DNA of 64,000 nt from the NCBI RefSeq assembly GCF_013315695.1, contig NZ_CP054353.1, one strand, 5' to 3'. The position numbers were made by a program, and so were the translations under genes. The DNA comes from Escherichia coli (GTDB taxonomy: Bacteria; Pseudomonadota; Gammaproteobacteria; Enterobacterales; Enterobacteriaceae). Each line of letters opens with the position of its first letter. Position 1 is the stretch's first letter. The notes below the pieces were generated by a model. The model ran no database searches and was not told the DNA's origin. It worked only from the letters and a program-made list of their open reading frames with translations. Below, in pieces: positions 26,596 through 26,671 of the stretch.

Positions 26596-26671
26596 GGCAC
26601 TTTAGCTCAGTGGTTAGAGCAGGCGACTCATAATCGCCTGGTCGCTGGTTCAAGTCCAGCAGGGGCTACCA
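26596..26671 (+). tRNA. ileY: tRNA with CAU anticodon, ileY-like (tRNA-Ile2, lysidine-decoded)
   Basis: 76 nt ending CCA; D-arm TAGCTCAGTGGTTAGAGC, anticodon loop CTCATAA on perfect 5-bp stem, T-arm GCTGGTTCAAGTCCAGC; acceptor stem has one mismatch and two GU pairs. Confidence 0.7.

Follow-up and report, generated by a model that had tools for sequence, protein, structure and literature searches.

A derived acceptor-stem allele of ileY, the second tRNA-Ile2 gene of Escherichia coli, as a probable case of early tRNA gene decay

A tRNA gene with a mismatch in its acceptor stem may be a strain variant or a gene that has begun to decay. Both possibilities had been raised in an earlier note for an 'ileY-like' tRNA in an island hot spot, within a 64,000-nt stretch of Escherichia coli DNA (the whole of which is referred to here as the window). 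The questions considered here are which gene this is, how its acceptor stem came to be altered, and what the alterations would mean for the encoded tRNA.

Identity of the tRNA gene and its acceptor stem

ARAGORN detected a sole tRNA in the 64-kb window, a 76-nt gene at 26596–26671 on the plus strand with the anticodon CAT (positions 34–36, at 26629–26631) and an encoded CCA end. The gene reads GGCACTT-TA-GCTC-AGTGGTTA-GAGC-A-GGCGA-CTCATAA-TCGCC-TGGTC-GCTGG-TTCAAGT-CCAGC-AGGGGCT-A-CCA. It was labeled 'Met' by ARAGORN, the usual label for a lysidine-type tRNA-Ile2, and 'tRNA-Ile' by PGAP in the genomes that carry the identical allele. The isoacceptor tRNA-Ile2 has a CAU anticodon in which C34 is converted to lysidine by TilS, and it thereby reads the rare codon AUA as isoleucine (PMC9976931, PMC11947777); C34 of the window tRNA is the corresponding site of lysidine formation. 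The Rfam tRNA model RF00005 aligned with the window tRNA over its full length (1–71 of 71), scoring 64.1 bits (E = 2.7e-13; gathering score, 29), with 4:69 flagged as the sole non-standard pair.

Positions 8–42 were found to be identical to those of K-12 ileX and ileY, which assigns the gene to tRNA-Ile2. The D, anticodon, and T arms, described earlier as canonical, are all fully paired and are the same as in K-12 ileX/ileY except for C43, which forms G27-C43 instead of G27·U43. The IleRS determinants A73, U12-A23, C29-G41, A37, and A38 (PMC9976931) could all be read in the sequence. The acceptor stem consists of the 5' strand GGCACTT (26596–26602, positions 1–7) and the 3' strand AGGGGCT (26661–26667, positions 66–72), which together give G1·U72, G2-C71, C3-G70, A4×G69, C5-G68, U6·G67, and U7-A66. 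The one A-G mismatch and two G-U pairs that the earlier note had counted were thus exact. Owing to A4×G69, the stem does not form seven Watson-Crick or G·U pairs, and of the two acceptor pairs required by TilS, C5-G68 is kept whereas 4:69 is an A×G mismatch.

The 10 kb flanking the tRNA showed 100% identity to E. coli MSB1_4I and AF3 and 99.9% identity to MS 21-1 and AF14, and the window overall was 99.7–100% identical to E. coli genomes with the tRNA at the same position. In these relatives, the gene is bordered on one side by a ygaQ-like alpha-amylase gene and glaH, and on the other side by ypjCB, a pinH-like recombinase remnant, and ypjA. K-12 ileY (b2652, 'tRNA-Ile2 variant') occupies the same position between ygaQ/glaH and ypjC/ypjA, with the same orientation relative to ygaQ/glaH and ypjC. 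Because the locus is the same, the window gene is the chromosomal ileY, the second (accessory) gene for tRNA-Ile2; 'ileY-like' understated the case, the position being that of ileY proper. The two ileY genes are alike in length, anticodon CAT, D arm, anticodon loop, T arm, A73, and CCA, and 72 of their 76 bases are identical, the window having A4, C43, G67, and T72 where K-12 ileY has C, T, A, and C, respectively. The primary tRNA-Ile2 gene, ileX (b3069), encodes the same isoacceptor and is also identical to the window ileY at 72 of 76 bases, but its locus, mug-nfeF, is a different one. A 74-codon ORF (26683–26907, plus strand) begins 12 nt past the window tRNA; AF3 lists it as a hypothetical protein and one further assembly also calls it, but most relatives do not.

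Origin and distribution of the altered alleles

Comparison of acceptor stems arranged the alleles in a series. The stem is GGCCCCT/AGGGGCC in ileX, GGCCCTT/AAGGGCC and Watson-Crick throughout in K-12 ileY, and GGCCCTT/AGGGGCC in ileY of MS 21-1, 2014C-3075, and FDAARGOS_497. The U6·G67 wobble of the latter, a halfway step from C-G in ileX to U-A in K-12 ileY, is an old and widespread polymorphism; hence, only C4→A (26599) and C72→T (26667) are new in the window. The intact ileY of MS 21-1 and of the phylogroup-F-type strains FDAARGOS_497, 2014C-3075, CE10, and SMS-3-5 represents the inferred ancestor of the window allele. It has the same flanks, its tRNA differs from that of the window only at C4 and C72, and its acceptor stem is paired throughout apart from the old wobble. 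The states C4, C71, and C72 are ancestral, being found in the outgroups FDAARGOS_497 and 2014C-3075 and likewise in MS 21-1, the nearest intact allele, from which the window is separated by the two derived changes.

The first of these changes, C4→A, breaks C4-G69 and is common to the AF14 lineage, where the stem of AF14 and OZ546911 (GGCACTT/AGGGGGC) has acquired an additional G2×G71 mismatch. Since the window, AF3, and AF14 share not only A4 but also a second derived character at site 24733, A4 arose once, in their common ancestor. The change C72→T, which turns G1-C72 into G1·U72, was added later and only in the line of the window, AF3, and MSB1_4I, alongside a change in ypjCB at 27954, and G71 (C71→G) was gained independently in the AF14 line. 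The 80 nt upstream of the window tRNA are identical to those of AF3, and in the 20–36 nt compared with the strains carrying intact alleles there are at most two differences; a promoter scan directly upstream of the window tRNA returned no convincing promoter.

Exact matches to the window allele were present in 2 of the 5426 complete RefSeq E. coli genomes, and the same count (2/5426) was obtained for the AF14 allele. No one-step neighbor of either allele was found in the 5426 complete genomes, and the A4-only intermediate was absent from these genomes, from 55 metagenome loci, and from 17 lineage-targeted loci. The YpjCB protein variant of the window lineage (836 indexed blocks in the public collection) was accompanied by A4+T72 in all seven of the listed places that encode it. 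MS 21-1-type YpjCB was accompanied by an intact ileY in 9 of 10 listed places and by A4+G71 in the other. One metagenome contig carried A4+G71 on a T43 background; the pattern used in the metagenome ileY search held positions 8–42 fixed, and variation is therefore visible only outside them. The A4/T72 allele is fixed in one lineage, and the 'strain variant' proposed earlier is borne out as a derived, lineage-specific ileY. Widespread identical alleles, which had been set against the idea of decay, were not what was seen: the allele is confined to this one lineage, and the decay reading is not refuted.

The genes ileX and ileY provide the attB at which phage 186 and SpLE1-like elements integrate (PMC3448106, PMC8767318). 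It could be argued that the altered stem is an artefact or an import: a sequencing error, a scar of integration or excision, or the result of conversion by a tRNA copy on a phage or plasmid. Among the metagenome ileY loci, 4 of 55 do have an element-derived 3' half joined to foreign downstream DNA. In these loci (L015, L052, L062, and L066), the 3' half is an element-borne copy with the T arm GTTGG/CCAAC and a compensated 50:64 pair, one of the replaced halves carries T72, and the foreign flanks are of three kinds: a CP4-like island end (DUF4942/DUF5983), a segment with a phage Nu1-type terminase subunit, and one that is uncharacterised. The window tRNA is the same gene as in this attB system but has no element integrated at it. 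It retains the native T arm and the downstream flank of the strains with intact alleles, and the combination of a direct repeat with a foreign flank or integrase that marks an occupied tRNA was not observed; no att-like repeat of the tRNA 3' end of at least 12 nt, or with at most 3 mismatches in 30 nt, was present in the 64-kb window.

These features rule out an integration or excision scar, and position 4 lies outside the 3' part that elements replace. Sequencing or assembly error is ruled out by the identical allele in independent Australian and UK assemblies and in at least seven further genome records. Conversion by a phage tRNA is ruled out because no donor was found, the best phage copy in 50,697 phage records being 94.7% identical and none having A4. 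Hence, the probability of an artefact or import is negligible, and the changes are best read as point mutations that would have arisen in place. Templated (quasi-palindrome) mutation was also considered, and no k-mer of at least 10 nt across the mutated sites recurs in the window. The 'island hot spot' of the earlier note therefore holds for ileY in general, given its use as attB and the foreign 3' halves, but the window tRNA is empty, and the hot spot does not explain its mutations. In a separate metagenome contig, the ileY upstream flank was joined to the ileX downstream flank (GATATAGCAAAGGCTGACGA); this junction is either an ileX/ileY rearrangement (compare an O121 strain, PMC8767318) or a chimeric assembly.

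Constraint on the acceptor stem and predicted effect of the lesions

E. coli TilS requires C4-G69 and C5-G68 (PMC1635315, PMC11947777), and C4-G69 is also a minor determinant for IleRS (PMC9976931), as established in studies that used pair swaps and not an A×G mismatch (PMC1635315, PMC11947777, PMC9976931). The first lesion thus falls exactly on the base pair by which TilS tells tRNA-Ile2 from tRNA-Met. The degree to which this pair is conserved was evaluated in a cross-species scan of tRNA-Ile2 genes with the same 35-nt core, taking one genome per species (n = 119). C4-G69 was found in 116 and C5-G68 in 115 of the 119 genes, the 1:72 pair was G1-C72 in 114 and G1·U72 in 2, and the acceptor stem was paired throughout in 117; no 4:69 mismatch occurred among the properly registered genes of this set. 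Two of the cross-species genes have their first two pairs inverted to C-G (CCCCCCT/AGGGGGG and CCCCTTT/AAGGGGG).

Within E. coli, the changes in other ileY alleles were pair-preserving or compensatory only (6:67, 27:43, 28:42 G-C→A-U, and 50:64 C-G→U-A), and unpaired positions were confined to 2:71, 4:69, and 5:68 of the lesion alleles. The A28-U42 allele (L211 and L216, 777–852), in which the compensatory replacement of G28-C42 is combined with C43 and C44, shows structural constraint on ileY in other lineages. Two further putative lesions were observed. A 1-nt deletion in the G67-G70 run was seen only in E. coli strain 48 (L190, 231–305) and could be a sequence error. The change C5→A in a metagenome contig (L060, 2961–3036) breaks C5-G68, the other TilS determinant pair; it is a singleton with no exact match in the complete genomes and could likewise be a sequence error.

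Under the general Rfam tRNA model, the intact genes reached 73.8 (K-12 ileY), 73.1 (ileX), and 71.7 bits (parent allele), compared with 64.1 bits in the window and 57.2 bits in AF14. With an Ile2-specific model built from 44 distinct tRNA-Ile2 sequences, a training set that includes many of the sequences compared, intact genes scored 96.3–104 bits (parent, 100.4), the window 90.3, and AF14 86.1, other matches in the searched loci reaching at most 61 bits. The step from parent to window thus lowers the score by 7.6 bits in the general and by 10.1 bits in the Ile2-specific model. A covariance score in the normal functional range had been named earlier as speaking against decay, and on this point the outcome was divided: the general score is well past the threshold, but every intact tRNA-Ile2 outscored the allele under the Ile2-specific model. 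The folding energy of the cloverleaf, computed without modifications or tertiary contacts, rose from −32.1 kcal/mol in the parent to −22.3 in the window and −20.6 in AF14. Acceptor pairs were predicted with a probability of ∼1.0 in the parent, but of at most 0.59 with A4 alone, 0.09 in the window, and 0.02 in AF14. As this probability drops further with the second substitutions (T72 and G71), these deepen the predicted defect. Compensation by a shift of register, examined by hand, was rejected, since the second substitutions lowered predicted stem formation and did not restore it.

From these comparisons we infer a loss of ileY function through reduced recognition by TilS and IleRS. The window allele, which is fixed in a single lineage, is probably hypomorphic or dead and would mark an early stage of decay in a redundant tRNA gene. 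C4→A came first, placing A×G at 4:69, a pair that TilS needs and that is a minor IleRS determinant, and C72→T second, weakening the terminal pair to G·U. Because the rest of the tRNA and the flanks are unchanged, ileY is probably still transcribed, and poor folding, maturation, lysidinylation, and charging would be expected of its product. The 'incipient decay' of the earlier note is, in this respect, the best-supported reading, drawn from the broken C4-G69, the G2×G71 of AF14, the lowered scores, and the redundancy with ileX. Some observations pull the other way. G69 is kept, and some recognition by TilS and IleRS may survive; G1·U72 is present in element-borne 3' halves and in two of the 119 tRNA-Ile2 genes, both apparently normal, and the second change may be mild; the general tRNA covariance score is far above threshold. 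Fixation in a successful lineage, with the gene neither deleted nor mutated beyond the acceptor stem, would also fit a tRNA that is still useful.

Much the same evidence bears on the idea of a harmless functional variant, in which A4×G69 and G1·U72 are tolerated, modification and charging remain adequate, and the difference is an ordinary neutral polymorphism. The intact state of the other arms, A73, the CCA end, and the flanks would agree with this, as would the Rfam score of more than twice the threshold, the G1·U72 pair in tRNA-Ile2 of other species, the stable fixation of the allele in many genomes, and the PGAP label. Such a variant is nevertheless unlikely, as it would place a mismatch at a pair that is C-G in nearly all homologues and a published determinant of TilS and IleRS. 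In addition, the AF14 sister lineage has added a second outright mismatch, the Ile2-specific score lies under that of every intact gene tested, and three stem changes where 0.09 were expected (see below) is not neutral behavior for a constrained gene.

A change of identity was also considered. tRNA-Ile2 with an unmodified C34 loses Ile acceptance and gains Met acceptance (PMC9976931); if TilS missed the A4 stem, the tRNA would be charged by MetRS and serve as an extra elongator tRNA-Met for AUG. The TilS determinant pair is broken, and A73, G2-C71, and C3-G70, which are listed as MetRS acceptor determinants, are kept. This outcome appears very improbable, however, since the same damage to the stem should impair processing, MetRS recognition, and EF-Tu binding, and the window allele is without the U4-A69 and A5-U68 pairs of tRNA-Met. 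The AF14 sister allele, moreover, destroys G2-C71, which is not what selection for Met charging would be expected to produce. With dedicated tRNA-Met genes already present in E. coli, a benefit from one more is not evident.

With hypomorphic or dead ileY as the favored reading, working AUA decoders in the lineage are probably overcounted when the 'tRNA-Ile' call of PGAP or the tRNA-Met call of ARAGORN is taken at face value. The natural alleles A4, A4+U72, and A4+G71 are ready substrates on which the recognition rule of TilS could be examined with a mismatch and not a pair swap.

Redundancy, the excess of stem substitutions, and the neighboring DNA

The lesion is tolerated because ileX is intact and ileY is dispensable. 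The ileX gene of MSB1_4I, a strain of the same lineage, is identical to that of K-12, and K-12 tolerates deletion of the ileY transcription unit but not that of ileX, unless the latter is complemented (PMC11480407). A cell with its primary gene intact would thus be expected to tolerate a weakened ileY. Together with its upstream flank, ileY was present in 3098 of the 5426 complete E. coli genomes and absent from ∼43%; in BL21(DE3), strain C, and EC958, tRNA-Ile2 was matched only where the upstream flank of ileY was lacking. The segment ygaQ-ileY-ypjCB-pinH'-ypjA (window ∼23786–34400) is accessory, and some E. coli are missing all of ygaQ-ileY-ypjA, which leaves 683 bp between the end of ssrA and glaH (L208/L209, 2956–4001). 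ileY may be the cargo of an old island beside ssrA. The ileY gene itself is already known, and its degraded allele series is, as far as the literature was searched, undescribed; the window ileY is a new member of the familiar class of decaying redundant tRNA genes. It is a small result, that of a redundant tRNA gene caught early in decay.

The distribution of substitutions raises the further question of why the stem was altered. In the 34.5-kb core shared by the window, AF3, AF14, and MS 21-1, 39 SNP sites segregate, and three of them lie inside the 76-nt tRNA, all in the acceptor stem. With 0.086 sites expected, this is a ∼35-fold enrichment (binomial P = 9e-5), and P becomes 0.002 at three times and 0.054 at 10 times the regional neutral rate. 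As the test is post hoc and covers one clade and three events, the excess is a real but modest signal. It could be due to drift after the first lesion at a mutation-prone locus, or to selection for shutting the gene down.

Selection would imply that the three acceptor-stem changes were each favored, less TilS-tRNA-Ile2 interaction or a smaller supply of the AUA decoder being beneficial in the niche of this lineage. The molecular effect would be the same loss of function, and only the evolutionary cause would differ from that of decay. A stepwise switch-off of the spare AUA decoder by positive selection, beginning with C4-G69 and proceeding to 71/72, is a possible but tentative account. The enrichment (P ∼1e-4, and still 0.002 at three times the neutral rate) is in favor of it, as are the position of the first change exactly on the TilS determinant and the two independent second changes at the adjacent positions 71 and 72, both of which reduce predicted stem formation. 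ileY changes elsewhere keep their pairing, which suggests that plain neglect is not the rule. Against this stand the small and post hoc sample, the P of 0.054 if the local mutation rate is 10-fold, as tRNA genes may be mutation-prone, and the fact that the other putative lesions (the C5→A contig and the strain 48 deletion) are singletons that could be sequence errors. Furthermore, the loss of the ileY segment from ∼43% of genomes indicates that the gene is often simply dispensable.

A precedent for selection comes from experimental evolution of Burkholderia cenocepacia, in which six tilS and five tRNA-Ile2 mutations were selected and the lag phase was shortened (bioRxiv 10.1101/2022.10.28.514323); the rise of tilS mutations in the E. 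coli LTEE is perhaps a second precedent (bioRxiv 10.1101/2022.10.28.514323). The B. cenocepacia mutants have point mutations in tRNA-Ile2 or in those domains of TilS that recognize the body and the acceptor stem of the tRNA, and they were interpreted as weakening the TilS-tRNA interaction. They are, however, laboratory mutants of another genus, with a fitness gain measured for tilS mutants and one tRNA-Ile2 mutant, whereas the window ileY carries natural mutations in a redundant second copy. If the switch-off was selected, it would be a wild counterpart of the laboratory advantage gained from a weaker TilS-tRNA-Ile2 interaction, and it would mean that the dosage of lysidine tRNA, or a partly crippled A4 tRNA, costs fitness in some niches. 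Early decay of a redundant gene remains the reading that we consider probable.

Farther from the tRNA, the window strain is not identical to any of the compared genomes. Past ypjA, it has a P4-like satellite and then a P2/186-like prophage, which directly adjoin each other (34600–64000). The satellite encodes an integrase at ∼44.1–45.4 kb and has primase-helicase, Icd-like, ogr/Delta, and psu genes. The prophage extends from ∼46.2 kb past the end of the window and has genes for an integrase, CI, CII, Fil, a replication endonuclease, portal, and terminase; a satellite and its possible helper are thus arranged in tandem near ssrA. At this place MSB1_4I has only a P2-like element, and MS 21-1 and AF3 have a P4-like element in the stretches compared. 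Inside ypjA (29818–34386), an autotransporter gene, the window is without 24 nt (CCGGATCCAAAACCAGACCCAAAA) at 33390 that are present in MS 21-1, AF14, and AF3; the difference is in-frame, and CCGGATCCAAAACCAGACCCAAAA resembles a short repeat unit. In MSB1_4I, a region outside the window (L010, 32669–48666) contains a K1-type capsule locus with neuB, neuC, a polysialyltransferase gene, and kps export genes.
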